From: a bacterium
GTDB taxonomy: Bacteria; SZUA-182; DTGQ01; JAFGSM01
Reading direction: 5' to 3'
NCBI GenBank assembly: GCA_016934595.1
Contig: JAFGSM010000151.1
Span: 1 to 59,686 of the forward strand
Length of the DNA: 59,686 bases
How positions within the stretch are numbered: the stretch's first letter is position 1; each line of letters starts with the position of its first letter. The translations under genes and the position numbers were made by a program. The notes under the pieces were generated by a model. It saw only the letters and a program-made list of their open reading frames with translations, made no database searches and was not told where the DNA came from. This document shows, piece by piece, positions 27,768 to 52,393 of this stretch.

Positions 27768-30700
27768 TTGGGAAAGAAAGGCATTATCTGGTTGACATTC
27801 TCCATTTACCTGGGGTTGTTGCTTCTTGCACCGATAGAGGTGACTGCTGTCGACGGGGGATCAGGGGACCCTGAAGGCGCCCATAACCAGATACTCCCCG
27901 GGCTTAAAGACGCTTTATGCAAAAGGTGCCACTTCGTCAAAAGCGGCAATGCGCCTAAGATATGGAAGGATGTCCCCCTTGGCGCGGAGACAATAAAGGA
28001 TACAAAAGGGGTGAGAACCATTTGCCAGAGTTGTCATTACCCAGGAAATGCAGTGAACGCCATTTCAGGTTTTTCCCTCGGGGTCCATCCCACAGGGGGT
28101 CATGAATACAGTTACTCAAATGTCTTTTTAGACAAGACCAATTCAGGGCAAGGGGAAGATCATGTTATGCATGACTGGGCAGACATTGATCCGGTCACAG
28201 GAAGGCTTCCTGAGGGACTCAACCCTGCATTTCCAACAAAAAAGGCTGACAAATGGGGCTACCCCAGACAGAAAGGAGACACTGAAAACAAGGGTTTTTA
28301 CTGTATTTCCTGCCATGATCCTCACAAACAGCCTGAAGAAAAGACCGATGGCACTGGCGATTATCTGAGATTAAAAGAAGGCGGCAATTTAGGCGCTTCA
28401 GGTGACAGGACAATATTTTGCCTGCAATGCCATCAGAACATACCGGAAAAACCTCAGCATGGTGTAAAACTGGGTTGTCAGAGGTGCCATCACCCCCATG
28501 ATTCGATTATCAGGATAGAGGATGATCCAATCCTCGGTCAATGGATACTGCTGGTTCCCATAAGAAAGACCAATTTCAGGGCTCTTCCAAATGTCCCATC
28601 CTTTGGCAGTCAGGAGAACGAAATTGATCTGGATATGTCTTCAACCTGTTATGGGTGCCACAATCCGAGCAGGCCTGCCGATTTTTCAAAATTAGGCGCC
28701 GCCATTATTTTTGGGGATGACACCGATACTCCTAAGGAGCACCATCCAATGGGCAGCCAGGCAATGATAAAGGGGATGATCCATGCGGATGAAGTGATGT
28801 TCCCAAGCCCGGAAGGTCAACTCACCTGTATCTCCTGCCATGATGGATTTCATGAAGGCAAAAACCCTTATTTTTTGCGGCAGGATTTTACTGAAGATGC
28901 GGCAGGGTTTTGCTCCGTATGTCATAATGAAAAGACGTCGGAAGATCTTGGTCCTGCCAAAGGCCAAGGTCATCGCCAGATTTTCGGGAAAAGCCCTAAT
29001 GGGAGAGGGGACTGTATGTTTTGCCATTTTATTCATGATGGAAGGGATTGCGGCACAGAATCAACCCCTGCCATAGAGGCTCTGATCAGGGTCCAGCCCA
29101 TGAATCTGGCGTGGGCCAAAAAGGGAGATATTCAAAGCACAGAGGACTATGAAGATATATGCTATGGATGTCATGGAGACATAATATATATGAAAGGCTC
29201 AGGGTATGAAGGCGCAATGCTCCAACCTGACAAGTTTGCCAGTCATCCGTTCTCCGGCGCCCCCCACCTCGTCAAACCAAGGGAGGGCTTCCTTATCTCT
29301 GACGGCCAAAGGTCCGAAACGATAAATGATTATGGGGTTCCTTCCGGAGAGATATTTTGCGGCTCTTGTCACAATGTCCACAAAGCGTCAAATAAGCCCT
29401 ATCTGAGGGTTGATGATTCTCCCTATCTTGGCCAGGGTTTTTGCGAAGGCTGTCATACAGAGTGTCCCGCAGAAGGACGCTCAAGCCATCCGGTTGGAAT
29501 GCCCCCTAATATGGATAAAACAGTGGCAAAGTTTCCTGACACCCTTTACGGCGGGGGAAGCGGAGACCCAAGAGGCATTACAAGAGGCAATGAACCTGAC
29601 GGTGAAACCCTGTGCCTTACATGCCACAATGTCCATGCTGCATCTACAGACCATCAGGGAAACCTGACTGATAAAACGGCCATTAGAAGCCAGAACGGAA
29701 AACACGGTCATTTGCTTTGCGCAGACAACTTCTCATCCGAGGATGGAAGCGATCTTTGCCGCTCATGCCATAAACCATTTGAAGGCATTTGCGGATCAAG
29801 ACATGACTTTTCAGGCATAGATCTGGGCGAGATCAGCTCCAAAGGGGTATGTTCTGCCTGCCATACCCCTCATAAGACAAAGGATAAGGTGCTGCTGTGG
29901 CCAAGGTCCCTTACGGAAGAAAGGGGCAAATTATCTCAGAAGGACAAGCCTGATTATGTGCCAGGTATAACCATTTTCTGCTACGATTGCCATGAAGACA
30001 TCTCTTCTCTCGACAACGATCCCCCTTCGAGCGCCTTTTTTAAACCACCCCAGGACATTGCATTTAGCGATGGCCCTGGGTCAAGCTCAATGGTGGGATA
30101 TTACGACACAATCCCCCCTGGAGATACTCAACCGCCATCGGACGGTTCGCCAACTGGCGGACATTATATCCAGACAGCCCATATCTCAAGGTTTAGACAT
30201 GGCATTGAGACAGGCGATAAACTGCCGTGCGATTTATGTCATAATCCGCATGGAGGAAACAACAATCAGGTCTTTCTCGTAAACCCTTTGGGTGTAAATA
30301 CAACAGACAATCTGGAAGCCAGCCGCCATACACGGAACGGCACAGGCACAGGCAGGGAAATCTGCGCATCCTGTCATGGTTACGCCGAAACGGATGCGTT
30401 GATCGGAATACCGTTGAAGATATATGATTTCACGATTGTCAGGACATCCGGCGGCAGGGCTGAACATAAAAAAAATAGCGGCGCACCATGCACAAACTGC
30501 CACAGGCACAACAGGATTGTGCCTGTTCAAAACCAGGCCCATCTGGTACACCTGATATCATCAAGAGTCTCAGAACAAGATGGTTCAAACCTCATACGCA
30601 CAAAAAGCATGGATGGCGCAAGCAGAGGTCTTGGGGTCGATAGCTGCTCTATATGTCATCTGCCTGAGCTGACATATGAAATCGGAGAGCTGAAATTCTC

Positions 30701-31841
30701 CGATGATCAGCCCCTCAACAGAACCAATGTCTGCCAGTCATGCCACAGCGAGGGAGGAAGTTATAACGGCGTATCGGATCCGTCAATCGGGGCAAAATTT
30801 AATTGGCGCTCATCCCCCTATAATTCAAATGGCACGCTTAAGCTCGGCAAAGAGAAATGGTGCGCGGGCTGCCACGATGAAAAACCTTCGACAATCTGGT
30901 GGCCCGGACTTGATCGAACAATCGTTGCCCCTAATATATGCGGGGAGAAAGAGTATACCGCCAGCCAGGACCAAGGTTATGGTTTTTACGAATCAGGGCA
31001 TGGACTTGCCCCCTATTTCAAGTACATGGATTCGGAAAGGCGCGGCGCAGGCCTTTTGTGCACGGACTGTCACGACCCTGACCTGCCTCATGTAATGTCC
31101 AAAAGATACGATGCAGAGGCAGGAAATTATCAATCAGGATACCGCCTCCGGTCAATTAACGGGAAGGAACCCATGATCATCCCCAGGCTGCGTGACGAAT
31201 ACTGGCCGGGAGATTTCAATCTCTGTTATTCCTGTCATCCTGAGAAATCAATCATAGGTCTAGGGTTTGGTTACCGTTCTTACACCACAAATCATAACCC
31301 CTTCTTCCTTGTGGACAATCCCGAAACCGGCTTTAAAAATATCGACCTTCAGGGATTGAACAGGCATAATACAACCCTGGGGCCGACCTTCGACTTTATC
31401 AACTATTATCCCAGCAACAGTCACTGGAACCATCTGGCGCTCCCCAATGCGCTTGTCACCCTTTCAGTCCCTACCGGAGGAGGCAGGACCCGTATCAGCA
31501 GTTGTATCGACAGTAAATGCCACAGCAAGATCGTATGGGATTCGGATCGCGATGGATTTCTTGACTCAAGGCCATCATGCACAACCTGTCACAACCCCCA
31601 CGGCACAAGATATCCGTCCATGACAAGGAATGATATAGCCATAACGCACGATCAACCTGGGCAGGACTGGCGGTACGGGTATATAAATAGCCGAAATTAC
31701 GGCCTGTTTGGCAATGAGGGAGAAGACCTCTATTGCGGAGAATGCCATGCAAAACTCATGAGATTTGGTGAAAGCAACTATAAATATTACAGGAACCCCT
31801 GGGTGGATGCCGATGAAATTGCCCCAAAGGCGCCAGAATAA
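27768..31841 (+). CDS. Giant multihaem c-type cytochrome (about 26 CxxCH plus one CX4CH), secreted
   Basis: 1357 aa. TTG start 6 nt after aggag. Signal peptide GIIWLTFSIYLGLLLLAPIEVTA. I count 26 CxxCH by hand. Aa ~28-673 is one copy of the 14-haem module that is triplicated in the next gene. The C-terminal half has 12 more CxxCH and a CIDSKCH. Many sites have the CxxCHxPH doubled-CXXCH style. Confidence 0.9.
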   Translation: MGKKGIIWLTFSIYLGLLLLAPIEVTAVDGGSGDPEGAHNQILPGLKDALCKRCHFVKSGNAPKIWKDVPLGAETIKDTKGVRTICQSCHYPGNAVNAISGFSLGVHPTGGHEYSYSNVFLDKTNSGQGEDHVMHDWADIDPVTGRLPEGLNPAFPTKKADKWGYPRQKGDTENKGFYCISCHDPHKQPEEKTDGTGDYLRLKEGGNLGASGDRTIFCLQCHQNIPEKPQHGVKLGCQRCHHPHDSIIRIEDDPILGQWILLVPIRKTNFRALPNVPSFGSQENEIDLDMSSTCYGCHNPSRPADFSKLGAAIIFGDDTDTPKEHHPMGSQAMIKGMIHADEVMFPSPEGQLTCISCHDGFHEGKNPYFLRQDFTEDAAGFCSVCHNEKTSEDLGPAKGQGHRQIFGKSPNGRGDCMFCHFIHDGRDCGTESTPAIEALIRVQPMNLAWAKKGDIQSTEDYEDICYGCHGDIIYMKGSGYEGAMLQPDKFASHPFSGAPHLVKPREGFLISDGQRSETINDYGVPSGEIFCGSCHNVHKASNKPYLRVDDSPYLGQGFCEGCHTECPAEGRSSHPVGMPPNMDKTVAKFPDTLYGGGSGDPRGITRGNEPDGETLCLTCHNVHAASTDHQGNLTDKTAIRSQNGKHGHLLCADNFSSEDGSDLCRSCHKPFEGICGSRHDFSGIDLGEISSKGVCSACHTPHKTKDKVLLWPRSLTEERGKLSQKDKPDYVPGITIFCYDCHEDISSLDNDPPSSAFFKPPQDIAFSDGPGSSSMVGYYDTIPPGDTQPPSDGSPTGGHYIQTAHISRFRHGIETGDKLPCDLCHNPHGGNNNQVFLVNPLGVNTTDNLEASRHTRNGTGTGREICASCHGYAETDALIGIPLKIYDFTIVRTSGGRAEHKKNSGAPCTNCHRHNRIVPVQNQAHLVHLISSRVSEQDGSNLIRTKSMDGASRGLGVDSCSICHLPELTYEIGELKFSDDQPLNRTNVCQSCHSEGGSYNGVSDPSIGAKFNWRSSPYNSNGTLKLGKEKWCAGCHDEKPSTIWWPGLDRTIVAPNICGEKEYTASQDQGYGFYESGHGLAPYFKYMDSERRGAGLLCTDCHDPDLPHVMSKRYDAEAGNYQSGYRLRSINGKEPMIIPRLRDEYWPGDFNLCYSCHPEKSIIGLGFGYRSYTTNHNPFFLVDNPETGFKNIDLQGLNRHNTTLGPTFDFINYYPSNSHWNHLALPNALVTLSVPTGGGRTRISSCIDSKCHSKIVWDSDRDGFLDSRPSCTTCHNPHGTRYPSMTRNDIAITHDQPGQDWRYGYINSRNYGLFGNEGEDLYCGECHAKLMRFGESNYKYYRNPWVDADEIAPKAPE

Positions 31842-32233
31842 TAAACCCTTTTCGGGAGAATCGAAATTGATTAAGATTGATCAGATTATAAACACAGGAA
31901 TGTATCGGCTATCAAAATCAGGACATTCCGGATATCATCGAAAAGCCCTTGATCAAGAAATGGCAAGCCATCTACCGGGTATGAAAACAAGATACTACAG
32001 GAACACCTTTTGCATATATCCTAAAGTTTACAGGGGACAAGTCTAAGTGATTTTGCAATTATTTGAATACTATGGATAGATGTGACAACAAAATCAGAAT
32101 TTTTAATAACTTAAGGTTAGTCATAACTTGAAATTGGCCTTGACAACTATTATGATTATAAGGTGTTTATATAGTTTGTTAAAACAATTCAGAATAGAAT
32201 CGTTATGTCCCTCTTTAAAAAAGCGTTTCTATT

Positions 32234-35200
32234 GTGGAATATTCAGGTAACATGTTTAAAAGACTTTTTTTGTATCACATATCCTCTGAAAACATCTTGG
32301 TGAAAAACTTTGCTTTTGCGCTGCTCATTATAATTATCTCCATTTTTGTAAGCAGTGCCTATGCCGATGTAAATGGACCTCACGGAGACCCTCGAATCAG
32401 AAGCCCAAAGGGGATCTGCGCCACATGTCACATACCCCACGAGGCAAAAGGGCGCAAGATATGGGCAATAAGCGGCAAAAATAACAGGGACCTTTACAAG
32501 GGAATACGCCAGCTATGTCAGACATGTCATGATGGCACCTTGTTTTACAGTGGATCCCCTCCCGGATCGGATGTGTCTGACCCAGGTTATGAAACAGCCG
32601 ATTATCCTCCTGCATCGTCGTACTCCGGAGAATTTGGCGTTGAAACCCAGGGTGAAGAAAAACTCAACATATATGCATCTACAGGCATATATGACGTATT
32701 CGGAGACATGAGCGCTTACGAAAGTCATGTGATGCATGGGGCCGTTGAGCTGGATCCCAAGAAAAGCCAAGTCCTTCTCGACGATATCGCAAGCGTTATT
32801 CCCGATGTCTTTCCGCTTGATCCAACGGATGAAGACATCTATCCGGAAGGCGCCCCCGAGAAATATAGATCCGGAGCGCCAGGTTTTTATTGCGGCACCT
32901 GTCATGATCCTCATAAACAGCCGGACGGGAAATACACAGGCGGGTTTTATCTGCGAACCAGGAAAGGCCACGATGTAGGCAGCCCATGGGTAAACAGGAA
33001 ACCTTTCTGTGTGCAGTGCCACGGGGTGATCCATGCGCCTGAATCCGACTGTTTGGCATGTCACCATCCCCACCTTGGCAAAACAATGATAAAGGACGAT
33101 GAGAAAGCAGGGAGATGGATACTTCGCAATCCTATTGTGCAACAAAATTTTTCAGCCAAACCCAATGTGCTGCAAATAAATGATGGCGATGGGCAAACCC
33201 CGTCGGCTCTTTGTTATGGCTGCCACATTGGCGAAAAGGATAACGGATGGATAGAAGCGGGAGCCGTGCCTATCTTCGGGGATGGAATATCAAATCCCAT
33301 TTACACCAATGATATCGGAGACAGCGGCAAGAGGCAACACCATCCTATGGGGAACCAGGCATGTCTTGATGACCCTTCAAAAGCGCCTAACGGTGTTTTT
33401 ATTCGCGCCCCAGGCTTAAATGATTTGCGAGGCAGCATCCCGGATATCCTCAACAAAAACAACGAGATTACATGCACATCATGCCACGACGGGATACATG
33501 GCTCAGGGCCATATAAAGACCAGCCGGGTGCCAAGGAAAAAAGCAAAAAGAACAACTTCCTGCGATGGGATTTCGAAAATGACAATCCTGGATTCTGCAC
33601 ACAATGTCATTCGAATATGGACAAAAAGGATGCTTTTTCCGCACAGAATCTGGATCACGATATTAAACATCATCAGACAAAAGACGAGGCATTTGCCCGC
33701 AATGTAACCAGGCGGACATTTGTATACGATCCAAATTCAGGGATTCAAGAAATAGAGACAGGATGTGGCAATTGCATGTTCTGCCACTTCATCCATGACG
33801 GGGAAGACAGGGGCGAGACGGCAACACCTTCTCTTGAGGCATTGATGAGGGTTCCCCCCGTCAACCTGCCATGGTCGGGAAACGATAGCGCTGAGGATTA
33901 CGAGGACCTTTGCTTTGGCTGCCACAATGGTGAATACAAGGGCAAAAAAAATATTGTGGGAGACCCTGAGACAGGCTCATGGCTAAAACCGGGCCTCTAT
34001 TTTTCACATACCTTTACAGGCGAGCCGAATATATCGATAGACCCCAATATCTTTCCGGTATCGGACGGGGATGCTATCGATGTTTTTGATGATTATGGCG
34101 TATTGGAAAGAAATATCTATTGCGGCACATGCCATGACGTACATTCAGGCAAAAACTGGCCTTATCTCAGGTCGAGCAAATCCCCATATGAGGCATATGG
34201 TTTTTGTGAGTCATGCCACGACCAGGACGATTTTGTGATGCGCAGCCACCCTGTCGACCGGGGACCTAACGATGATAAAAGCAAGGGATCCATGACCAAG
34301 GCCGCCTTCGATCCTGTCTTCTCGCAAGGCGGAAGCGGAAGACCTGGAGGTATTTTGTCTGAAGGAAAGGTCATCTGCCTTACCTGTCACAACACACATT
34401 CGGCGGTCACATCTAATGAAGAAACGGCGCATGGGACTCTCCTTGTCATGGACAATTTCCCTGCGGATTCTCCAAATACAAATGGCGACGAGATTTGCAT
34501 GGGATGCCACGATCAGGAGATATTTAAGGTCAATGGCCCCCATATCGACGAATTATCAGAAAAAAACTATAAGGGAATCTGTCACAACTGTCACACCCCC
34601 CATTATGCAAAAACCGGATCCAAGATATGGGCGCTTGAACTTAAAGGTGAATTCGGAGGTGTGCACGAGCTGTGTTATAGCTGTCATAATACATCAGCGT
34701 CATCAGGCATAGACAGCGTATTTTTGAAAAACAGATATGAAAACCATGTGATGTTTGGCGGGGCTGCCATAATAGCCGGAAACTGCCCCTATGCGCCCAA
34801 TCTGGAAAAGGATGTCGACACATCTTTCTTTCCGCTTGATCCCAACGATTATGACACCATACCGGACAAGGATGTCACATATTGCAGCCGGTCGTCTTTA
34901 AAATACCTTGATAGTCGAAACAACGAAGGCGCAGGATTTTATTGCGGCTCATGCCATAATCCCCATTTGCAGCCTGATGATCCAAACTCAAACGGGGACT
35001 ATCTAAGGTCCCGTGATCAAGATTCTATTGGCACACCAGGCAACAGAAAGGATTTCTGCAAACAGTGTCATGGCGTTTATCATTTTCCAAGCTCCGATTG
35101 TCTTTACTGTCATCACCCCCATAAAGGGAGAACTCTTATTGAAGAAAATGAATATGCAGGACGGAAGATCATCTCCTTATTTCCTTTGAAAGATATGATC

Positions 35201-40069: not shown

Positions 40070-40084
40070 AAAGGGAATCAAATC

Positions 40085-41701
40085 ATGGGACATAGAACAT
40101 ATATAATAAGATGCAGGAAGATGATAAAAAGGCATACAGAAGGGAAAACCTGCAATAATAAAATACAGGGCATGTCAAGATTTCCTGCACTGATATTAAC
40201 ATTGGCCTTGATAACAGGTTTGACGGGTTTACTTTTCCTTTCACAGCAAAGAAACTATAAAGCCCTGGCACAGGTGATGATGGAAAAGACATCACCTCCC
40301 ATGAGCTGCGCCGGATGCCATGATTTTCAGGCAAAGCTATTTTCTGATTATCCCTCCCATCATCCAAACTTTCTCACGTCGACCGTGCAGACAGATTTAT
40401 GGACAAAGGCAGACAACATCAAAAAAGATTGTCAGGCATGCCACATGTTCGACCCTAAAAAACATACAAAGGGCATAATATTATTAAAAGACCCTGATCC
40501 GGCAGACAGATTTGTGTACAGCGGCGATTTGATAAATAAGACAAACCTCTGTCTTTCATGTCATGACCTGCCATCAGACCCTGCAAAGCCTGCCGTATTT
40601 TTCAGCACGGGAGGTTCACCCCCTGAGATAGCATCCATGTGGATCAACAGCGTCCATGGGAAAAGCAATATTCCAAACACGCAATCCCCTATCGATTGTC
40701 TGGTATGTCATAAATATCATGGATCCGCATTCCCAGGTTTGAGAAAGCTCAAAGATGAAGATCTGTGCTTCGACTGTCATACAGAGAAACAGCAGGAGTT
40801 CGATCCTGGCTTTGCGTCCCATCACAAGATTGAGCCCATACTTTTGGGCTCCCAGTTTCAGGATGTCCTTGATTGCACTGATTGCCACAATCCGCATCTC
40901 GTGACAAAACAATATCCTATTACAAGGCCAGGCCTAAGCACAGAGCTTTATCAAGCCCTTCCTGCCAGCCTTGCCACACCAATCGTTACAGATACGGACA
41001 CAGGGGTCCTGATTTCAGGGACGCCTTATTATACAGGGCAGACAAATGAGGCAGGAACGCCGTTAAGCGTCCTTTTCTGCATGGAATGTCATGCGCCTAA
41101 TCTATTCGAGCCGCTCAGGACACCATGGCCGGGCGCGCCTAATATATCCTTCGAACTGACCTCCAGAAATTATGGCACAGGCACTGTCTCGAATTTCTAT
41201 TATGCCCATAACCATGTTCAGTCAGGATCATGCAGCACCTGCCATACCACTGGAGGAGGCGGAGGAGGCGGAGGAGGAGGCGGCGGCGGCACTACCATTA
41301 TCAACAACACTTTTAATGGACATTTTACCCACAAGGACAATGCTTCATGCACTTACTGCCATGATCCTCATGGAACAAAAGGGACATTTGCAGGATCAAC
41401 CGCCAGTGGTATCATAGGCATTCAGAGAGGGCACCTCCTGAAGGATTGGTTGCTGGTTGACTCAAGGTACGCAAATGCGCTGCCAGCATACGGAGGGTAT
41501 CTTGCCCTGCAAAACGGCGCCAAAAGCTGTCTGGCTAATGACCCTTTCAATAGCTGCCATAATGTGAAGTATATACATAAGTCAAGCGTAAAACCCCTGG
41601 ATACGCCCACCAGTTGCGATACAGAAAGTTGTCACAGCGGTTTTAATCCTGTGGCTGCAAGGACACTGGCAGACAATATAGCGCCGGAGGCCCCAAGATA
41701 A
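40085..41701 (+). CDS. Multihaem c-type cytochrome (9 CxxCH plus 2 atypical candidates) with an internal poly-Gly tract
   Basis: 538 aa, starting only 15 nt after the previous stop. Alternative starts are at 40121 and 40172 (MSRFPALILTLALITGLTGLLFLS, a signal/anchor). Sites: CAGCH, CQACH, CLSCH, CLVCH, CFDCH, CTDCH, CMECH, CSTCH, CTYCH, plus CDTESCH. Confidence 0.85.
   Translation: MGHRTYIIRCRKMIKRHTEGKTCNNKIQGMSRFPALILTLALITGLTGLLFLSQQRNYKALAQVMMEKTSPPMSCAGCHDFQAKLFSDYPSHHPNFLTSTVQTDLWTKADNIKKDCQACHMFDPKKHTKGIILLKDPDPADRFVYSGDLINKTNLCLSCHDLPSDPAKPAVFFSTGGSPPEIASMWINSVHGKSNIPNTQSPIDCLVCHKYHGSAFPGLRKLKDEDLCFDCHTEKQQEFDPGFASHHKIEPILLGSQFQDVLDCTDCHNPHLVTKQYPITRPGLSTELYQALPASLATPIVTDTDTGVLISGTPYYTGQTNEAGTPLSVLFCMECHAPNLFEPLRTPWPGAPNISFELTSRNYGTGTVSNFYYAHNHVQSGSCSTCHTTGGGGGGGGGGGGGTTIINNTFNGHFTHKDNASCTYCHDPHGTKGTFAGSTASGIIGIQRGHLLKDWLLVDSRYANALPAYGGYLALQNGAKSCLANDPFNSCHNVKYIHKSSVKPLDTPTSCDTESCHSGFNPVAARTLADNIAPEAPR
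41252..41290 (+). repeat. GGN simple-sequence tract (13 consecutive glycine codons)
   Basis: gga gga ggc gga gga ggc gga gga gga ggc ggc ggc ggc, read directly. It lies immediately after the CSTCH-TT haem site. Confidence 0.9.
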
Positions 41702-41850
41702 ATAAACACTCATGAACAAGTATTTCACCACCGAGGATGAAAAAAATAAAAAGGATAAACTGGTTGCATTTCGGATGTGAAATCTGCAAGGTTATTAACC
41801 GATATAATTAATAGGGATATATGCATAATTAGAAATATGGAGGATACAAG

Positions 41851-44800: not shown

Positions 44801-45396
44801 TAGACATCGCCTTAATGAGTGATGCCCCCGCCATATTGAAAATCCATGCAGATCCCAATTACCTTACTGCAAATGGCTCTGAGGAATCCACTGTAAAGGT
44901 ATGGGTGGCTGATATAAATAAAAACTCGGTGCAGCAGGCAGTAGTGGAATTTTATATCCTTCAGGATGGAATGGGAAGACTATCTGATATAACAAGGACA
45001 ACAGATTTCAACGGCCTTGCCAATTGCACCTACACATCGCCTGCCCTTTCAGGGTATTTGCCAGCCGTTGCCACGATTCAGGCAAAGATTACCTCGCGTG
45101 TGCCTGACGGAGAAGAAATGGCAAAGGCATTGGGTACTATATTTGTGCCTCTCATTTACACTGAGCTGAAAGCCGACGAAGAGTTAAAAATCCTGGAATG
45201 GCTCTATAAAAAAGGGGATGATATAAAGGAGGGATCGCCCATAGTCCGCATATCGACGCAAAAGGGCGATTTCTCCCTGAATGCCCCCGTCTCCGGACAA
45301 CTTATCCAAATAAAAAGGCACAGGAGAGAGGGTGTCAGACTGGGCCAAACCCTGGGGCTGATAAGGGCAGACGATGAATATCTGGAGCTTGATTAG
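41851..45396 (+). CDS. Large secreted surface protein: 4x FN3-like + 3x unassigned beta-domain + 3x Big_1-like Ig domains + C-terminal lipoyl/biotinyl-like domain
   Basis: 1181 aa. GTG start 6 nt after ggagga. Signal peptide ...FAGSSHA. FN3-like units (GDGEAHITW...YYYAVTAVDFFGNES; GDGEIQLLW...YFYMASCV; VKLTWEE...YLYSVVAV; VKITWKS...YIYTISAVDRAGN). Big_1-like units (RITVKVTDANGNP, SMITAQLADISGNP, STVKVWVADINKN). The C-terminal sequence resembles a lipoyl domain. Confidence 0.7.
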   Translation: MIPNTIFSDKKRFVFQTLFTGMLVFIWICLFAGSSHAIEARAGDGEAHITWIAPTKNEDGTPLTDLKGYYIYRTENPSHPYKRLNEEAVKGICYTDTGLLNGITYYYAVTAVDFFGNESQRSPVVSITPNILPPSNFKAKPGDGEIQLLWEPYEKSDIKGYLIYRRGALDTEFKKITDIPVPAQQTHYIDSSVANGIAYFYMASCVGMDGMEGLQSQEAGATPLAIIPGELVSVKALYIREQEGISYVKLTWEESQEENVTGYNVYRRLKTERDFTRLTPDPIKETYYNDTTVSADKGYLYSVVAVTGGGMETRYPREAECFTSEVYISSFSHDTGGMAKKAGDEICFMLRGEPGAFSSYKIEGLTSQLPMEEINDGVYKSCLKITQEMSIDQAKATGFLEDKNGNMTSVAANKPITIDNEPPGPVYDSKAILDLGIVKITWKSPDGEHSGFDIFRKELVSTGTFDSDPDAGELIAKVQAGNTSHYDSAVKPDRDYIYTISAVDRAGNLSTPSSTPSVHVPYQEGIPVIEKVIDNTAGLPQKTGNKIHVELTGEEGCQAGFFIQGVFEGTVPMTETEPGRYSGDYIIRPEDTSEEALIRGCLQDDMNHFNIQNSPNRFPINFESNDTTPPLIYEISHNAFEISGFSGHLVPGNHLDITLRGEPGCKALFAISNSDITAYMKDGGSVSTPESCVIFHEMSESEDYPGQYSGGYTIKWEDGTSAEKWLWICLADKAGNLAYRQSDETLSIDARPRIEVIPADKALWVDQESKTRITVKVTDANGNPAERHLIALTLTTTDEYTGVVGGGDFGRRIDSDDMGIDFDQETDSWGEVEIEYSSGFAAKTALIVAKDLTTGHAGAGYILNILKAQTDIFLYPPARFSINSLYKLILTADPGRLTADGVSTSMITAQLADISGNPEKKEGLKISFHLSDENNGTLSYPREVHTDSYGQASIRYTAGIIRGTVTIAAFCESNDRYNGACSAVDIALMSDAPAILKIHADPNYLTANGSEESTVKVWVADINKNSVQQAVVEFYILQDGMGRLSDITRTTDFNGLANCTYTSPALSGYLPAVATIQAKITSRVPDGEEMAKALGTIFVPLIYTELKADEELKILEWLYKKGDDIKEGSPIVRISTQKGDFSLNAPVSGQLIQIKRHRREGVRLGQTLGLIRADDEYLELD

Positions 45397-45432
45397 TATA
45401 TATTCGATAGCAATTTGCCCGGCAAAACCTCA

Positions 45433-45449
45433 TGCCGCCTTTTGTCGCC
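45433..45449 (+). promoter_or_regulatory. Candidate enhancer (UAS) motif tgccgccttttgtcgcc
   Basis: About 100 nt upstream of the sigma-54 element at 45548. It resembles the two direct repeats at 52468-52504 (tgcgcctatttttgtcg and tgcgccctttttgtcg). Confidence 0.35.
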
Positions 45450-45547
45450 ACGAAGGATAAAAATAGAATCTATTTTCAATACAAGCCGCAATAATAATCT
45501 TAGGTCAGAAACGTCTAATGTATGGTATAATTGTATATAAATATAAT

Positions 45548-45563
45548 TGGCATATTTATTGCT
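45548..45563 (+). promoter_or_regulatory. Sigma-54 (-24/-12) promoter-like element
   Basis: TGGCAT-ATTTA-TTGCT, correctly spaced, 58-76 nt upstream of the candidate starts of the LVIVD gene (45622 and 45640). Confidence 0.55.
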
Positions 45564-45621
45564 TTTTTAAGGGATAGTTTCCGGCATGAAGAAAATCTTC
45601 AATTGTCTTAATCTTTAATAT

Positions 45622-48600
45622 GTGGGGGAATTGTACTCGATGACAAATCGCCCGTTGACTTTGAAAATAACAAAAGGCATCTGCTTTTTAACATTGCTGA
45701 TTACATCATTGATTATGGCTTTGCCCTATAAAGGTATCTCAGCCCCCCGTATAACTGGCGTTCTGCCCAACCAGGGGCCAAAGGCAGGGGCAAATATAAC
45801 TATTACAGGCGAAGGCTTTTCCCCTGACGACAAGATAACTATCTGGGGCGGCGGGACATATATAAAGGGTTCTTATCCTACAACCGGACCAGCCAATGCA
45901 TTATCCTGTTCGGGCTCTTATGCCTATCTGGCCTGCGGTTCTGAAGGGGAAACAAACGTAAACGGGGTACAGATATTCGATATTCAGGACCGTGCAAATC
46001 CCCGCCCTGTATCCTTTTTTGAACTAACCCAAAAGGCCAATGATATCCTTGTGTTTGGAAATTATGCCTATGTGGCTGATACAGATGGAGGGTTGCAAAT
46101 ACTGGATGTTCATGACCCTAATTCTCCTTCTTTAATCACATCCCTTCTTCTGCCCGATTATATGAATGCACTGAAAATTTCCGTATATGGATCGCATATC
46201 TATATGGCTGCGGACTATGGGGGACTGCTTGTAATAGATATAAGCGATCCTGCAGCGCCTTGTATAACCGGATCATGTGCCTTCCCTCCTGACGGATATG
46301 CGCTGGATGTCATTGCCGAAGGCGATTATGCATACGTAGCGGCAGGGTGGGAAGGGGTAAAGGTGATAAATATAACCAATCCTGCAAATCCCAAACTCAT
46401 CGCAACATTCTCTTCTGGAAGATTCATTTCAGGGATATACAAATATCAAAACTACCTCTATTTGTCTGCAATGAAAAACGGGATAGAGATTGTTGATGTA
46501 TCCGTTCCAGGAAATCCTTTATCTGTAACGAATTTTTCCACCCCGGGGCTGGCTCGAGAAACCTGCGTTATGGGAAACAATCTATATGTGGCGAATGATT
46601 ATTGCGGAGTCGAGGTTTTTAATAATGACATACAAAACTTCTCGATGGTTGGATTTCAGGAGACCCTTGGGCGGGCTGTTGATTTGCAAATCTTTGACAA
46701 TCACATCTTTGTGGCAGGCTCCCAGGGGGGATTTCAGATCATCGACGTTGCAAACTCTAGGAACCCCTCTATTGTCAATATAGCTGATCTAATGGACGGG
46801 GCTACAGGGGTTCAGGTAAGCGGCCTCTATTTGCAAAAAACCCTGCTGTCAAGATATATATATATCTTCAGCAAATCCTATTCCTTTGGACAAAACTGGT
46901 TAAAGATAATAGACGTCTCAGACCCAAAGAATATAAAGTTATTGGGAAGCACTTATGACATAGGTCCCAGGCCTGAAGATCTGGAAGTAAGTCAGGGTTA
47001 CGCCTATCTGGTTGACGGAGATGACGGCCTGCAGGTTTTCAATGTCACGGACAAGCGAAATCCTCAGATGCTCCCCTTTTATGATAATGACACATCGGGC
47101 GGCAGGGGGATATTTTCCCGGGACAACAAACTTTTCCTGGCTGACTCTAAGGCCAATGGCATGGCATCCCTAAAAATCTTTGGTTTAAGTTTGAGCATGT
47201 TTCCCTATTTGGCGGGTGAGAGTCCTCTCAACACCCTCTATGCAAGCGCCGAGGCTATTTGCGGCATGGGAGAAGGTTATGCTATAGTGGCAGCAGGAAC
47301 CGAAGGGATAGAGATCTTTAATGTCCAGACACCTTCTCAGCCATTCAGGCTAAAAAACCTTTCAATCCCAGGGTATATCAATGATGTTATCTCTTCAGGG
47401 CAGCTTGCCTATCTTCTCAATAAAAATGGCCTTGTACAGATTCTCGATACAGGGACGCCCTCAAATCCTGTCATTTTGGGATCTTGCGAGACCATCGGAG
47501 AGGCGAGGTCCTTGTCGCTTATAAATAATCATCTGTATCTGGCTGAATGGGGAACAGGCGTGCATGTCATCGACGTTGTGGATCCTGCAACCCCCCTGGC
47601 GATTGCCTCTTTGAAGACATTGACCCCGCCCGAAGATGTGATAGCTACCGATGACTATATCTATGTGGCCATCGAGAGCGGAATGATGATTTTGGATACG
47701 ATCAAACCATGTCCGTCGGTTTTTTACGTCAACGATACCATGTTAAATGTGGATACCCCTCCTGGATTGTCCTCTGGCACTTATCATATTACCTTGACCG
47801 ATCCCAACGGGCTTATATACTTATTCCCCAACGGGTTTACGGTTGGTGAAAACCATTGTCCAGTAATAACATCTATCAAAGATAATGATAATATAATAGG
47901 CTATGCAGGGGAGGAATTGTCCATTGTCATAGACGCAAATGATGCAGACAACGATCCATTGACCTATTCCGTCTCCCTTTATAAACTCCCTGCAGGCGCC
48001 ACCCTGAACGGGAATGTCTTTTCATGGACACCTGAGATCAAATACACAGGAGGTTTCAGGATATATGAGGATATCGTCTTTACAGTTTCAGACGTTGAAT
48101 GTATAGACGAGAAAAAGATCGATATCTGGATCATCGAGGAAATCTCCAATGTACCGCCAGTCATCGATGTACCGGCAACTTACTACGCCAAAGAGGGAAC
48201 GGCAATGGCCTTTCTGATTGACGCCTACGATTATGATCCAGGTGATTTGAATTCCTTGGATTTTACAGTGCAAAATGCCCCTCAAGGCTCAAGCTTTCGG
48301 ATATTGTCTGTTCAGGCAGATAAGGTAACATGCGGCTTTTTTTGGACACCGACCTATACACAATCAGGCGCCTATGATATAACCTTCGTGGTCAAAGACA
48401 GGCATCTGGCCCAGGGTCAAGCCACTGCTTCTGTCATCGTTCAGAATATTACCGGCCCCATACTTTCAATAAACTTCATAAATGGCCGCAATATATGGAT
48501 ATGCCCTGCGGGCAGGACCAATTATACATCCTTTGATCTTCTCAGAGAATTGGGTGAGGATGCAGTATATTCAATACTGGCTTATGATTGGGACTCCACT

Positions 48601-48723
48601 GTGGTTCATAGCTGTTCCTGGTTTTATGGAAGGCCGTCAGGGGATGATTTTCCAATGAACCAAAGCCGCGTTTATGCAGTCTTCACCAAGGCAGATGTTT
48701 CCTTGTCCTGGCCTATTAACTGA
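45622..48723 (+). CDS. Secreted IPT/TIG + LVIVD-repeat beta-propeller + cadherin-like (putative Ig, He_PIG-type) protein
   Basis: 1033 aa. GTG at 45622 or ATG at 45640. Signal peptide ICFLTLLITSLIMALP. IPT-like PRITGVLPNQGPKAGANITITGEGF. At least 10 LVIVD-type repeats (GGLQILDVHDP, GGLLVIDISDP, EGVKVINITNP, NGIEIVDVSVP, GGFQIIDVANS, DGLQVFNVTD, EGIEIFNVQTP, TGVHVIDVVDP...). Two C-terminal units resemble IVIDANDADNDPLTYSV...LPAGATL. Confidence 0.75.
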   Translation: MGELYSMTNRPLTLKITKGICFLTLLITSLIMALPYKGISAPRITGVLPNQGPKAGANITITGEGFSPDDKITIWGGGTYIKGSYPTTGPANALSCSGSYAYLACGSEGETNVNGVQIFDIQDRANPRPVSFFELTQKANDILVFGNYAYVADTDGGLQILDVHDPNSPSLITSLLLPDYMNALKISVYGSHIYMAADYGGLLVIDISDPAAPCITGSCAFPPDGYALDVIAEGDYAYVAAGWEGVKVINITNPANPKLIATFSSGRFISGIYKYQNYLYLSAMKNGIEIVDVSVPGNPLSVTNFSTPGLARETCVMGNNLYVANDYCGVEVFNNDIQNFSMVGFQETLGRAVDLQIFDNHIFVAGSQGGFQIIDVANSRNPSIVNIADLMDGATGVQVSGLYLQKTLLSRYIYIFSKSYSFGQNWLKIIDVSDPKNIKLLGSTYDIGPRPEDLEVSQGYAYLVDGDDGLQVFNVTDKRNPQMLPFYDNDTSGGRGIFSRDNKLFLADSKANGMASLKIFGLSLSMFPYLAGESPLNTLYASAEAICGMGEGYAIVAAGTEGIEIFNVQTPSQPFRLKNLSIPGYINDVISSGQLAYLLNKNGLVQILDTGTPSNPVILGSCETIGEARSLSLINNHLYLAEWGTGVHVIDVVDPATPLAIASLKTLTPPEDVIATDDYIYVAIESGMMILDTIKPCPSVFYVNDTMLNVDTPPGLSSGTYHITLTDPNGLIYLFPNGFTVGENHCPVITSIKDNDNIIGYAGEELSIVIDANDADNDPLTYSVSLYKLPAGATLNGNVFSWTPEIKYTGGFRIYEDIVFTVSDVECIDEKKIDIWIIEEISNVPPVIDVPATYYAKEGTAMAFLIDAYDYDPGDLNSLDFTVQNAPQGSSFRILSVQADKVTCGFFWTPTYTQSGAYDITFVVKDRHLAQGQATASVIVQNITGPILSINFINGRNIWICPAGRTNYTSFDLLRELGEDAVYSILAYDWDSTVVHSCSWFYGRPSGDDFPMNQSRVYAVFTKADVSLSWPIN

Positions 48724-48742
48724 ATCAAAAATCTTGCAAAAT

Positions 48743-51028
48743 ATGAAGAAAGCGCTCTTGATTTATACTTTAAGCCTCGCCGCCATTCTGAACTTTTTTT
48801 TCGGTATTTTAATGGCGGAATTGGTTATTATCAGCCTGCCTGAAAAGGAAATTGGAGCAATGGATACATTCCCTGTTGGACCATTGGATCCCGTTCAGGC
48901 TGTCAGGCAGCGTCCCGAATGGACTAGCCATCTGGTGCTGGTATGGCAATATGAAACCGATATCCTCAAAGATGAGTCTCTTTATAAGCAGGCCGGACTT
49001 CATGGCTTTCATATAGATCGAGGGGCAGGGGAACATGATCTTGTAAAGTTTTCCATGGAAAAAAGATACCCTTATTATGTGGATCATGCGGCTGGCAAAG
49101 GGATCCTCTATCTACGCAAGGAGGAAAAACACAAAGTCACAGGGAAAAACCATGTGTTCCCTCGTCCATATAGCCTGGCCGATCCTTTGATCATAAATGA
49201 ATTGAAGGACCATCTCCGGAAAAATGTGGATGCGACAAAGAAGGGGTTTGTTCTTGCATACGCCTTCGACGATGAAATATCGCTGGGGTCTTTCAATAAT
49301 CCGGCCGAGGTTGACGTACATCAAATATCTGTGACATGGTACAGGGTCTGGCTCAAGAATCGCTATAAAACGATTTCCCTGCTTAATGAATCATGGGGAA
49401 AGAATTATCAGTCTTTTGAGGATGTTCAGCCTGTCAGCTTCGAGGATATTCGCAAAAATCATGTCAAGCCGCCTTTTGCAGGATGGAATCTCTCCTGCTG
49501 GTCGGAATGGCGGGCGTTTATGGACTTTCAATTTGCCAGTGTGCTTTCCGACCTCACTCGTTATACAAACGGGCTTGATCCCAATATTCCAGCAGGCTTT
49601 GTGGGAGGGCAAGGGCCATCCGCATACGGCGGATATGACTATTCGCTCCTGTGCCGCGCCGTGCAGTGGATGGAAGCCTACGATTATAACGGCACAGCCG
49701 AGTTGCTGAGGTCATTCTGGGACGACCCGCGCCGGATACGTATGCAGACCTACTTCACAGGTGATGATTATTATAAGAATTCATGGGCGCTGTGGTACCG
49801 TATTGCAAATGGCTGCCAGGGCAGCATTGCATGGCCTTCCGGATGGTTCAACATAAATTCCGAGACAGGCAAACGCGAACCTTCGAAAAAACTTACGGAG
49901 ATCGCTCAGACGCTTCGAGATGCTCAGGGGAAGGCCAGCGAATTCATCTCGCATCCTGATACCGTTCTGGATACAGATCCTATCGGGATTTATTATTCAC
50001 ACCCAAGCGTCCGGGCCGGATGGGTAATGGACTGCATCGTACACGGCAGCACCTGGCCAAAACGGTCGAGTTCCATAGATGACGACAATCTCACTTCAGG
50101 CAAACTTCGGGTCTCCTGGTGCAAATTACTCGAAGATACCGGATATCAATACAATTTTATAAGCTACCTTGATGTACAGGAAAAAAGGATAGACCTGTCT
50201 GAAAGATATAAGGTCATCATTATGCCTCAGATTATCTGTATCTCTGACGCAGAAGCAACGGCTTTGAGTGAATTCGTCTCACGGGGAGGCGTTTTGATTG
50301 CGGACGCACTTTGTGGTTTAATGACTGAAACAGGCAAGGGACGTTCAAAGGGGGCGATAGACGATGTTTTTGCCATATCCCGCAAAGAATCCCTCGGTTA
50401 TATGAACGGGAGATCCATTACAGAGATTAATGGAGAGCTTTACAACAAACCACTGGAGCAGCGTCTTGAGGCTTACAATGGCGCAATCAAGTATAAAGAC
50501 ATGATTGTCTATGAAAGGGGCACAAAGGGGCTAAGTAAAAAAGCGGAACCTGCAGGCACTGCTGATGTGCATATAACCAACTATTACAAGAAAGGAAAGG
50601 CTCATTACCTCAACCTGACGCCTGTGGCCTATCATCACTATCCTTTTCGCAATGGGAAGATGGGCAAACAATGGCGAAAGATCATAAACGCCCTATTGAA
50701 GGATGCAGGGCTCAATCCAAGGGTCGAAGTCATCGAGGACGGCTCAACATCTCCTTTAATCGAGTCTTTACTATGGCGAAATGGGAATCGATACTGTCTG
50801 GCGCTCATAAAAAACTATTCTTACTCTGAAGGTATATCCGGAGAATGGATATTTGACGGCGGAAAGATTGAGCCCGGAGAGGTCACGATACATATAAAAC
50901 TGAATCTTGACGTCAAGGGCATAAAGAACATCCGCACAGGCAAGGATTTCGGCAGCGTTAATGGATTCAGTGATTCCTTCAGGGAATGGGAGGCCAATTT
51001 TTACGAGTTCGAAGAAAGGAATTTCTAA
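48743..51028 (+). CDS. Exported glycoside-hydrolase-family-42-like protein (GH42 N-terminal + trimerisation-type domains)
   Basis: The track ORF starts at 48674. I prefer the ATG at 48743 (MKKALLIYTLSLAAILNFFFGILMA, a signal/anchor). WYRVWLKNRYKTISLLNESWGKNYQSFEDVQP resembles the GH42 segment (W...Y.....LN.AWG). YKVIIMPQIICISDAEATALSEFVSRGGVLIAD resembles the GH42 middle (trimerisation) domain. Confidence 0.5.
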   Translation: MKKALLIYTLSLAAILNFFFGILMAELVIISLPEKEIGAMDTFPVGPLDPVQAVRQRPEWTSHLVLVWQYETDILKDESLYKQAGLHGFHIDRGAGEHDLVKFSMEKRYPYYVDHAAGKGILYLRKEEKHKVTGKNHVFPRPYSLADPLIINELKDHLRKNVDATKKGFVLAYAFDDEISLGSFNNPAEVDVHQISVTWYRVWLKNRYKTISLLNESWGKNYQSFEDVQPVSFEDIRKNHVKPPFAGWNLSCWSEWRAFMDFQFASVLSDLTRYTNGLDPNIPAGFVGGQGPSAYGGYDYSLLCRAVQWMEAYDYNGTAELLRSFWDDPRRIRMQTYFTGDDYYKNSWALWYRIANGCQGSIAWPSGWFNINSETGKREPSKKLTEIAQTLRDAQGKASEFISHPDTVLDTDPIGIYYSHPSVRAGWVMDCIVHGSTWPKRSSSIDDDNLTSGKLRVSWCKLLEDTGYQYNFISYLDVQEKRIDLSERYKVIIMPQIICISDAEATALSEFVSRGGVLIADALCGLMTETGKGRSKGAIDDVFAISRKESLGYMNGRSITEINGELYNKPLEQRLEAYNGAIKYKDMIVYERGTKGLSKKAEPAGTADVHITNYYKKGKAHYLNLTPVAYHHYPFRNGKMGKQWRKIINALLKDAGLNPRVEVIEDGSTSPLIESLLWRNGNRYCLALIKNYSYSEGISGEWIFDGGKIEPGEVTIHIKLNLDVKGIKNIRTGKDFGSVNGFSDSFREWEANFYEFEERNF

Positions 51029-52393
51029 ATGCGCCCTTTAACGATTTTGTTAATAGATGACGAGGACAGGCAGTTGCAATTATTGAAGGAATTCTTGACA
51101 TACAGCGGATTTGATGTTTTTACCGCCAATAAAGGCCCTGACGGGTATGAAATAGCCCAAAAAAATACCATAGACCTTGTGCTAACGGACTTCCGTATGC
51201 CTGAATGGAATGGTCTTGAGGTTTTGAAAAAGATAAAAGGCTTGAATCCGGATATAGATGTCGTGGTAATGACCGCCTTCAGGAATGTTGAAGATGCTTT
51301 AGAAATCATGAAGGCTGGGGCATACGATTACCTGGCCAAACCTGTAGACATGGATGAACTGGAAAATCTGGTAAAACGTGTGCAGGAGAAGCGGATGCTT
51401 GCTGCCGAAAACCGTTTGCTGAAACAACAGCTGCAACAAAAATACAATTTCAGCGGCATATTTTCACAAAGCGGCGAGATGGAAGAGGTACTGAATATGG
51501 CGGGCAGGGTAGCCCCTGGCAAGACAACTGTTTTGGTTAGAGGCGAAAGCGGCACAGGCAAAGAGCTGATTACAAAGGCGATTCACTTTGCCAGCCCGAG
51601 AAAAGACAAACCATTTGTAGTGGTAAACGTGGCGGCATTATCCGAAAGCCTCCTTGAAAGCGAATTGTTCGGATATGAAAAGGGCGCCTTTACAGGGGCA
51701 AACCATCAAAGGATAGGACGTTTTGAGCAGGCTGATGGAGGCACCCTGTTCATAGACGAGGTTGGCGACATCCCCCTTTCCGTTCAGGTAAAGCTGTTAA
51801 GGGCAATTCAATTCGGGCAAATTGAAAGGCTTGGCGGAAACAAAACAATAAGCGTCGATGTCCGTATAGTAGCCGCGACAAACCGAAACATAGAAGAGAT
51901 GATAAAAAATGGCGAGTTTCGGGAAGACCTGTATTACAGGTTGAATGTAGTAACCATTTGGCTGCCTCCCCTTAGAAAGCGAAAAGCTGACATACCCTTA
52001 TTAGCAGAGCAATTTATCAAAAAATTCTCGCAGGAAAACAAGAAGAATGTAAAGGGCGTGTCAAGAGAGGCATTGGACCTGCTAATGAAACACGACTTCC
52101 CCGGCAATGTAAGGGAACTGGAGAACATCATTGAAAGGGCCGTAGTATTTTGCAGGGATGAATATATCACCCGGCAAGACCTGCCTTCTCAATTCGGTCT
52201 TGTCTCCGAAAAGGATATCTTAAATCCGCACCATTTGCATGATGGCTACAAGAATAAAATGAGGCAGTTTGAAACCGAAATGATTCAAGAAGCGATCAAT
52301 ATCTGCAATGGAAATCAAAGGGCTGCAGCAAGGTTATTGAACATCACTGAAAGGCATTTGCGGTACCGGTTAGAAAAACTGGGCCTTAAATAG
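51029..52393 (+). CDS. Sigma-54-dependent response regulator (NtrC family: REC + AAA+ + Fis-type HTH)
   Basis: 454 aa. REC DLVLTDFRMPEWNG. Walker A GESGTGKE. The sigma-54 contact loop ESELFGYEKGAFTGA. C-terminal HTH NQRAAARLLNITERHLRYRL. The ATG abuts the stop of the previous gene. Confidence 0.92.
   Translation: MRPLTILLIDDEDRQLQLLKEFLTYSGFDVFTANKGPDGYEIAQKNTIDLVLTDFRMPEWNGLEVLKKIKGLNPDIDVVVMTAFRNVEDALEIMKAGAYDYLAKPVDMDELENLVKRVQEKRMLAAENRLLKQQLQQKYNFSGIFSQSGEMEEVLNMAGRVAPGKTTVLVRGESGTGKELITKAIHFASPRKDKPFVVVNVAALSESLLESELFGYEKGAFTGANHQRIGRFEQADGGTLFIDEVGDIPLSVQVKLLRAIQFGQIERLGGNKTISVDVRIVAATNRNIEEMIKNGEFREDLYYRLNVVTIWLPPLRKRKADIPLLAEQFIKKFSQENKKNVKGVSREALDLLMKHDFPGNVRELENIIERAVVFCRDEYITRQDLPSQFGLVSEKDILNPHHLHDGYKNKMRQFETEMIQEAINICNGNQRAAARLLNITERHLRYRLEKLGLK

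Follow-up and report, generated by a model that had tools for sequence, protein, structure and literature searches.

Among described systems, the closest to the locus reported here is an operon encoding a peptidyl-prolyl isomerase (PPIase), a 26-haem cytochrome, a 16-haem cytochrome and a six-bladed beta-propeller, found in SEEP-SRB1, Ca. Desulfofervidus, Desulfuromonadales, Anaeromyxobacter and Desulfurivibrio (Skennerton et al. 2017, PMC5539420). Its products carry signal peptides throughout and have no transmembrane helix, no known porin accompanies them, and they were predicted to be periplasmic, with function unknown (PMC5539420). The locus we describe lies in a window of 59,686 nucleotides (nt), contig JAFGSM010000151.1 of assembly GCA_016934595.1. 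An earlier note had flagged seven consecutive plus-strand genes of this window (27768–52393), which we name A to G in order, as a single surface redox system of an architecture that it did not recognise as described. Since a 2017 paper (PMC5539420) had already described porin-less operons in which giant multihaem cytochromes (MHCs) are combined with a PPIase and a beta-propeller, that claim of novelty cannot be upheld. Neither the giant haem counts nor the missing porin is unprecedented; cytochromes with at least 60 haems are reported regularly in studies of metagenome-assembled genomes (MAGs). What is new here, within this recognised class of porin-less PPIase/giant-MHC operons, is a family of 14-haem modules together with a fixed partner set, C and D, under a sigma-54-type promoter.

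The features that make up the cytochrome locus are listed below. L-numbers denote the 146 loci that we fetched, and P-numbers denote related proteins.

23393–25093, plus strand: SurA/PrsA-like PPIase (Pfam Rotamase, Rotamase_2, SurA_N)
25212–27519: insertion between the PPIase gene and A (Pfam; absent in L005, L142 and L143)
27768–31841, plus strand: cytochrome A, 1357 residues, 26 CxxCH and one Cx4CH motif
31999–32014, plus strand: sigma-54 (-24/-12) promoter-like site AGGAACACCTTTTGCA upstream of B, with equivalents in six of seven lineages
32234–40069, plus strand: cytochrome B, 2611 residues as the longest open reading frame (ORF), 49 CxxCH and one CxxxCH
40085–41701, plus strand: cytochrome C, 538 residues as called, nine CxxCH, one Cx4CH and one Cx8CH
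41851–45396, plus strand: protein D, 1181 residues, haem-free, predicted to be exported

In both this locus and the Skennerton operon, a PPIase gene stands beside genes for exported giant MHCs that have signal peptides and no transmembrane helices, and no porin is encoded. A likewise has 26 CxxCH motifs, and NHL propellers occur near two relatives of our locus (L004 and L144). The published 26-haem protein, however, has about 660 residues, or 25 residues per haem, against 1357 residues and 50 per haem for A, and the two are 22–23% identical. In place of the 16-haem partner we find a B with 50 (or 22) haems, a C with 10–11 haems and an Ig-like D; the conserved unit contains no propeller, and B-C-D has a sigma-54 promoter. 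The 14-haem module may be remotely related to the 26-haem family: alignment of the two by hhalign gave a probability of 99.2% (E 6e-20), a score of a kind that is inflated by repeated CxxCH-PH motifs. The published type of operon was itself seen in seven distant loci, as a PPIase, a 26-haem protein of ~660 residues and then a 14–16-haem protein of 356–633 residues. A SurA-like PPIase also lies directly upstream of dense MHCs (21–26 CxxCH, 550–680 residues) in L012, L013, L041, L051, L057, L064, L018, L020 and L011, from MAGs labelled KSB1, Nitrospirota, Ignavibacteria, Desulfurivibrionaceae, Desulfobulbia and others. The pairing of PPIase and MHC is far more widespread than the taxa of the 2017 paper.

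The PCC3 clusters of Fe(II) oxidisers and other Proteobacteria encode repeat-built MHCs with medians of 34 and 21 haems, and up to 63, which have been proposed to be envelope-spanning wires (He et al. 2017, PMC5566968). A, with 27 sites, and B, with 50, are also repeat-built and very haem-rich, but the porin and the five-helix inner-membrane protein with two HX13H motifs that define PCC3 (PMC5566968) are absent here, and no D-like protein has been described in PCC3. With the conduits MtrCAB and OmbB-OmaB-OmcB, whose cytochromes carry electrons through the envelope, our locus shares multihaem c-type cytochromes, and there are weak Pfam matches to MtrC/MtrF domains II/IV and to doubled-CXXCH; unlike those systems it has no porin or lipoprotein cytochrome, and its proteins are 5–10 times larger. 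Against the MtrA/DmsE model TIGR03508, A, B and C scored 74, 52 and 45 bits, all below the cut-off of 192.2. The Geobacter nanowire proteins OmcS, OmcE and OmcZ resemble our cytochromes in what is apparently a closely spaced chain of bis-His haems, and in having no adjoining porin gene, yet they are homopolymers of 4–8-haem subunits, whereas here 27 and 50 haems are carried on one polypeptide by means of tandem modules. Matches to OmcE (7tfs) were confined to short local alignments of 35–80 residues (E 6e-6 and 2e-7), which gives no ground for calling A to C nanowire homologues.

Anaerobic methanotrophic (ANME) archaea have giant MHCs fused to S-layer domains. The joining of MHCs to beta-rich, non-redox surface domains is a point of likeness to our family, in which the protein P0126 is a He_PIG/Big_2 fusion. 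The differences are that the archaea have a single membrane and an S-layer, whereas here there is a separate Ig-like partner in what is probably a diderm.

The conserved unit and its 14-haem module

All seven ORFs are present at the coordinates the earlier note had given, and its counts of 26, 49 and nine CxxCH motifs in A, B and C (84 in total) were reproduced on recounting, as was its density of about one site per 50 residues, where less than one motif per protein is expected by chance. Together with three to four conserved variant motifs, these make ~87 haem sites in the three proteins. The set of genes that is conserved, on the other hand, is not the set of seven. It consists of the lipoprotein PPIase, which the earlier note had omitted, and A, B, C and D, and it recurs whole or in part in at least seven related metagenomic loci:

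L005: PPIase-A-B-C-D, the PPIase gene overlapping A by 4 nt; upstream are serine hydroxymethyltransferase (SHMT), RpiB, a small cytochrome and LPG synthase, as in the window
L142: Rnf, further on a small cytochrome, then PPIase-A-B-C-D
L143: PPIase-A-B-C, then a cut ORF at the position of D
L087: B-C-D, then unrelated genes
L088: A-B-C, the genes upstream being others
L004: B-C-D, preceded by genes for NHL proteins and two further cytochromes and followed by those for PGI and peptidase M50
L089: C-D

Flanking genes differ among the loci carrying the unit or parts of it. In L005, L142 and L143 the PPIase gene abuts or overlaps A, whereas in the window it lies 2.7 kb upstream of A. The insertion that separates them, which is specific to this lineage, holds a minus-strand gene for a sigma-70-family sigma factor (25212–26222) and a plus-strand gene for a response regulator with a HATPase-like domain (26488–27519).

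A and B are tandem arrays of one previously undescribed 14-haem module. A aligns with three successive regions of B at 32–35% identity, and all orthologues of A and B divide into a module of ~700 residues with 14 CxxCH motifs, B being three such modules followed by an eight-haem tail and A about two. The count of 26 + 1 motifs in A is kept in five lineages. Orthologues of B come in two sizes, four with 47–49 motifs in 2578–2658 residues and two (L142 and L143) with 21 motifs in ~1190 residues; those of C have 8–9 CxxCH and 1–2 variant motifs, and the Cx4CH and Cx8CH of C are invariant across them.

The module is rare. A profile of it, run against 1.84 billion representative proteins, gave 67 matches at E≤1e-30, of which ~28 span the whole module, many of these being single-module proteins of 660–830 residues, and homologues of B numbered ten among 5.8 billion clustered proteins; it is on the contigs of these ten, and of two A-type relatives, that the recurring gene order is seen. 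In one further locus, L144, two single-module cytochromes alternate with NHL propellers and are followed by a 1120-residue Reg_prop/Big_5 protein, with a sigma-54 activator upstream and sigma-54 sites present. The fusion mentioned above, P0126 (L006, 7772–17506), has 3244 residues, 60 CxxCH and a He_PIG, Big_2 and MopE copper-binding insert at residues 786–1189; its gene directly follows those for an RND efflux pump and the outer-membrane factor (OEP) that goes with it. A scan of a genome collection with the alignment of C, which carries generic haem-motif patterns, returned among the matches listed only unrelated cytochromes at 21–35% identity and no orthologues.

Pfam matches of A to C are to doubled-CXXCH, cytochrome c7 and MtrC-like families. 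Their haem motifs are evenly spread, the longest haem-free stretch being at most 125 residues, and PDB searches found no related solved structure beyond short motif-level matches to OmcE, NrfA and MtrA. Outside the haem motifs, each module has 12 invariant and two nearly invariant His residues. Because these match its 14 haems nearly one to one, the haems are apparently bis-His ligated and made for electron transfer, not catalysis.

This ligation pattern bears on an explanation in which A to C would turn over sulfur, nitrogen, selenium or metal species at a special haem, with D as a substrate-binding or adhesion subunit. Some enzymes, MccA among them, bind a special haem at a non-canonical motif, and the conserved Cx4CH, Cx8CH and CxxxCH motifs might be taken in that sense, as might weak local matches to the NrfA profile. 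Against this, invariant distal His and haems stand at about 1:1; moreover, A to C contain no CxxCK motif and no haem-free catalytic domain, and they reach the threshold of no enzyme family. We consider catalysis very improbable, and the least probable of the explanations weighed in this study.

Export, location and the partner protein D

Hydrophobic segments in A to E occur at the N-termini only, as Sec-like signal peptides ending in AxA and, judged by eye, lacking a lipobox. The earlier note had ascribed signal or anchor sequences to the first six products, which is borne out for A to E; F has a possible signal anchor. In no lineage is a lipid anchor or a membrane-spanning segment encoded in A to D. 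The PPIase is a predicted lipoprotein, and its lipobox (IISGC) is the sole one among the PPIase and A to C. The earlier note was also right about the missing porin and pilin: neither gene is found at 20–53 kb of the window, where there is no porin-like Pfam match or candidate ORF, and the seven related loci have no porin either, including in the flanks of L004, L005, L087, L088, L142 and L143.

Two cytochrome start codons merit correction. For B, 32252 or 32300 is more probable than the 32234 of the longest ORF, and orthologues suggest that C probably starts at M30 (~40172). With that start, the gap between B and C is probably ~100 nt and not the 15 nt originally proposed. With the longer N-terminus, C could be taken for a membrane quinol dehydrogenase of the NapC/NrfH type, a candidate that we rejected, as the extension is an artefact of ORF calling and orthologues begin with a normal signal peptide. 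C also contains a run of 13 Gly (residues ~394–410, window ~41260–41320), which is 17 Gly long in L005 and missing in L004, and which gives rise to spurious PDB matches to scFv linkers.

Using Pfam and PDB profile matches and the alignment of orthologues, we divide D into an FN3 region (residues ~40–320), three beta-rich ‘GEPGC’ repeats (~330–880) to which Pfam and PDB profiles assign no family, a Big_1/Invasin_D3 region (~885–1085) and a lipoyl-like domain (1100–1175). This C-terminal barrel-sandwich (window 45150–45375) matches lipoyl domains of pyruvate dehydrogenase (PDH) E2 with a PDB profile E of 9e-13. Its lipoylation is unlikely, the Lys at the relevant position being present here and replaced in L004. 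We also rejected D as a hidden porin or inverse autotransporter: it is beta-sandwich throughout, its N-terminus is FN3 and its middle has no barrel match. It has no beta-barrel, lipobox or known sorting signal. D is found downstream of C in L004, L005, L087, L089 and L142; a metagenome scan with its alignment gave mostly generic FN3 matches, L089 being the sole true C-D locus. The FN3, Big_1 and invasin-type domains of D are typical of surface-exposed proteins. As a possible extracellular scaffold or anchor, the earlier note had put forward D together with the propeller protein E, an idea that fits D, which is co-conserved with B and C, and not E, which is not co-conserved.

The explanation we favour, in which we place about as much confidence as doubt, is that A to C form a long bis-His haem conductor for which D provides an Ig-like scaffold, either at the surface or within the outer envelope. 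The PPIase would be a periplasmic lipoprotein foldase, co-transcribed with A in relatives, and A, B and C would be exported by Sec and act purely as electron conductors. At ~1 nm per haem, as in solved multihaem wires, the ~87 haems would extend over several tens of nm, more than the width of the periplasm. D would hold or position the cytochromes, whether on the surface or within the outer envelope, and electrons would enter or leave via the periplasmic cytochrome pool, for which the tetrahaem cytochrome and Rnf operon upstream in the window are candidates. No machinery for crossing the outer membrane is encoded locally; for A to C we infer an extracellular location. Ig or propeller partners recur in the module family, as D, as NHL proteins in L004, as NHL and Reg_prop/Big_5 proteins in L144 and as a fusion in P0126.

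Rates of divergence also bear on location. Between the window and L142, A to D are 38–48% identical (33–48% if the PPIase is included), compared with 54–69% for the Rnf subunits and SHMT and 75% for the tetrahaem cytochrome. Surface MHCs evolve faster than periplasmic ones (PMC13013709), and the faster divergence of A to D would lend indirect support to surface exposure.

Several observations weigh against a surface conductor. In no lineage does the cluster encode a porin, secretion system, lipobox or sorting signal that would take A to C beyond the periplasm. The relatives share a wider synteny (Rnf, SHMT, small cytochrome), such that the gene order may be partly inherited and not selected. 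An AlphaFold2 model of the module, from a 12-row alignment, reached a pLDDT of 30.6, hence the wire geometry is drawn from haem density and ligation alone. The cytochromes of the Skennerton operon were reported not to be expressed during metal respiration (PMC5539420). Finally, G may yet turn out to act on the promoter of B; the window encodes no other sigma-54 activator.

The main rival explanation is a periplasmic relay or electron store, which we regard as possible but clearly less probable than the surface conductor. Here, A to C would be a very large haem pool or capacitor standing between Rnf with the tetrahaem cytochrome (or other membrane complexes) on one side and reductases or oxidases of the periplasm on the other, D would be a periplasmic or peptidoglycan-associated organiser, and no electrons would cross the outer membrane via the module. 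Plain Sec signal peptides and the lack of lipobox, porin and secretion genes across seven lineages are what such a relay would look like, the PPIase partner is predicted to be a periplasmic lipoprotein, and the operon of Rnf and tetrahaem cytochrome adjoins the cluster in three lineages; Skennerton et al. came to the same conclusion for their analogous operon (PMC5539420). It is less easily reconciled with a fifty-haem chain, which would far exceed the width of the periplasm (the spacing being that of solved wires and not a model of B), with the surface-typical domains of D, with the divergence of A to D being faster than that of the neighbouring periplasmic cytochrome, or with the relative P0126, in which modules are fused to He_PIG/Big_2 domains of surface type.

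The C-termini of the cytochromes share a pattern. In the window and in L004, L005, L087, L088, L089, L142 and L143, all A- and C-type proteins end in D-x-[IVT]-[AP]-P-x-x-P-x-COOH, examples being DEIAPKAPE, DNIAPEAPR and DRVAPEPPM; in the window, cytochrome A ends ...DEIAPKAPE (31815–31838) and cytochrome C ends ...DNIAPEAPR (41675–41698). B-type C-termini are Pro/Trp-rich, ending ...W-x-I-P-W/G. The tails of A and C resemble APxxP linkers that precede FN3 domains in D, and they may be docking or sorting peptides.

A more specific form of the surface conductor can be imagined, to which we give a small chance: A, B and C might join end to end as a heteromeric haem cable, tens of nm long, carried by a stalk of D to or beyond the surface without a dedicated porin. 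The length of such a cable might be set by the number of 14-haem modules and not by polymerisation, with the [IV]APxxPx tails of A and C perhaps acting as docking peptides. If this were true, bacteria would have a third design for carrying electrons over long distances, in addition to porin-cytochrome conduits and filaments of polymerised cytochromes.

Promoters and the E-F-G operon

The region downstream of D contains the following features.

45420–45437, plus strand: weak terminator-like hairpin and T-run, 24 nt past the stop codon of D
45548–45563, plus strand: near-consensus sigma-54 promoter TGGCATATTTATTGCT upstream of E (promoter match)
45622–48723, plus strand: protein E (Pfam/NCBIfam TIG, LVIVD, He_PIG/Big_9)
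48743–51028, plus strand: protein F, 761 residues, GH42-like (clan GH-A) fold
51029–52393, plus strand: protein G, NtrC-type sigma-54 enhancer-binding response regulator (Pfam REC, Sigma54_activat, AAA_lid_14, HTH_8)
52477–53055, plus strand: second TTTTGTCGC (52477), sigma-54-like site (52582–52597) and small ORF (52684–53055), from motif and promoter matches

The site upstream of B (31999) is weaker than that upstream of E, but from the background rate in the same sequences the chance of such a footprint is P ~2e-7. When six B-upstream regions are aligned, every column varies except GG, A, TTGC and T, which belong to the -24/-12 elements. Because the footprint is conserved upstream of B in six of the seven lineages, B-C-D is very probably a sigma-54 operon, with PPIase-A separate and E-F-G a third unit.

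E-F-G is a lineage-specific sigma-54 operon that lies beside the cytochrome module and is not part of it, because it has its own promoter (45548), follows a terminator-like hairpin after D and is missing behind D in both L004 and L087, the sole relatives in which that region is visible. The seven genes are therefore not the single unit that the earlier note had taken them for. TGGCATATTTATTGCT sits 60–75 nt upstream of E, for which ATG 45640 is a more probable start than 45622. At the other end of the operon, the start codon of G directly follows the stop codon of F, so that the two genes abut as originally described.

G has all the parts of an NtrC-type activator: GAFTGA at residue 219, ESELFG at 210, the receiver Asp in LVLTDFRMP, and HTH_8. 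A TTTTGTCGC motif occurs at 45440, 108 nt upstream of the E promoter, and a second at 52477, ~105 nt before the site at 52582; none is found upstream of B. Because TTTTGTCGC precedes the promoters of E-F-G and of orf52684, and not that of B, the likeliest targets of G are its own operon and orf52684. We also considered G as the activator of B-C-D through a common upstream motif, and no such motif was found. The product of orf52684, possibly a second target of G, has 123 residues, is rich in Cys, Gly, Ser, Tyr and Asn and matches no family. An identical 20-mer, TTGGCATATTTATTGCTTTT, stands upstream of both the sigma-70-family factor gene (26310–26329, minus strand, around a sigma-54 promoter-like site at 26312–26327) and E (45546–45565, plus strand), which suggests a regulatory cascade from sigma-54 to the sigma-70-family factor. 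Further downstream, on the plus strand (53389–59572), are genes for a TonB-dependent receptor, a YfiR/HmsC-like (DUF4154) protein, a CHASE8 hybrid histidine kinase and a response-regulator/histidine-kinase protein, a signalling cluster that could supply the kinase for G.

Pfam agreed with the domain descriptions that had been given for D to G. E is an exported protein in which a beta-propeller of LVIVD repeats is joined to a TIG domain and to Ig domains of the He_PIG/Big_9 type. F was described as GH42-like with ~762 residues; its length is 761, and the three-domain GH42 fold (TIM barrel, trimerisation domain and beta-sandwich) is seen in its AlphaFold2 model (pLDDT 88), for which Foldseek gave a GH42 match at E 5.6e-27 with a TM of 0.60–0.66 and 12–14% identity. 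Structures of GH164 and of a beta-1,2-glucosyltransferase match almost as well as GH42, and F also has PDB matches at the level of sequence. Pfam scored it at 20.2 bits for GH42 (cut-off 21) and 31.9 for GH42M (cut-off 25.8). E178 and E311 are invariant in 61 homologues and are candidates for the catalytic Glu pair. We classify F as a predicted clan GH-A-like enzyme of an uncharacterised family. This family has at least 475 matches at ~50–66% identity, named by NCBI as Planctomycetota, Acidoferrales, Hodarchaeota and Desulfobacterales, and in a 132-kb Planctomycetota-like contig (L001) a relative lies among sulfatases with no multihaem cytochrome gene nearby.

A full model along the lines of the earlier note would make all seven genes one surface redox system, in which D and E are scaffolds, F remodels a surface glycan around them and G activates the whole set via sigma-54. 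Both B-C-D and E-F-G do have sigma-54-type promoters, with G the sole enhancer-binding protein in the window; NHL propellers occur near the cytochromes of L004 and L144, as a propeller does in the published operon; and the He_PIG domain of E resembles the He_PIG insert of P0126 (31% identity over 105 residues, E 8e-7). The model nevertheless fails to account for the absence of E-F-G after D in L004 and L087 and of any E homologue in the 146 fetched loci, for a family of F that crosses phyla and elsewhere lies among sulfatases, or for a TTTTGTCGC that precedes the promoters of E and orf52684 and not that of B; NtrC-type regulators, moreover, occur near cytochrome loci at about the chance rate. 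We think a single seven-gene system very improbable, and this and the catalytic explanation are both less likely than the periplasmic relay.

Neighbouring genes, host and implications

On the minus strand upstream of the cluster (12860–20719) is an operon identified with Pfam, encoding a tetrahaem periplasmic cytochrome (20243–20719; four CxxCH and a signal peptide), RpiB, SHMT, a dCMP deaminase and rnfCDGEAB (12860–17911). L005 and L142 have the same arrangement beside their cytochrome genes, and no protein of the neighbourhood is better conserved than the tetrahaem cytochrome, at 90% and 75% identity (75% with L142). In its layout the operon is reminiscent of others that link Rnf to a cytochrome, such as MmcA-Rnf of Methanosarcina. 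RpiB and SHMT are fused in relatives, with 583 residues in L142 and 594 in P0153. Further along (9139–9741, minus strand) is a gene for an exported Gly/Tyr-rich repeat protein, with three copies of GYGGYGTGYGGFVWPVSM and no family match; a low-GC stretch beside it (0.325 at 10–12 kb) holds an unassigned ORF of 355 residues and a zf-HC2 anti-sigma-like ORF. Scanning the window with Rfam and for tRNA genes gave no match to a non-coding RNA.

The earlier note had looked to Desulfobacterota, a placement that is not supported: the best identity of SHMT to a named taxon is 66%, and at 64–66% the named taxa span several phyla (Dictyoglomus, Nitrospirota, Deltaproteobacteria, Deferribacter and Atribacterota), compared with 72–74% to MAG proteins that are unnamed or named ‘bacterium’. 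At 90% identity, the clusters that contain eight of the housekeeping proteins have 1–2 members each. Because a TonB-dependent receptor, SurA-like chaperones and an AMIN-domain amidase are encoded, the genes indicate a diderm host.

For annotation, the lesson of this locus is that a run of ‘surface’ genes on one strand may hide two unrelated operons. For the family, the discovery of such operons in syntrophic partners of methane-oxidising archaea raised the question of how giant MHCs are placed and used when no porin adjoins them. The cluster described here is a compact case of it: a rare 14-haem block whose copy number varies (B with 22 or 50 sites), accompanied by a foldase, a 10–11-haem cytochrome and an Ig partner, under a conserved sigma-54 promoter. 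The module profile can be used to find the same system in other metagenomes.

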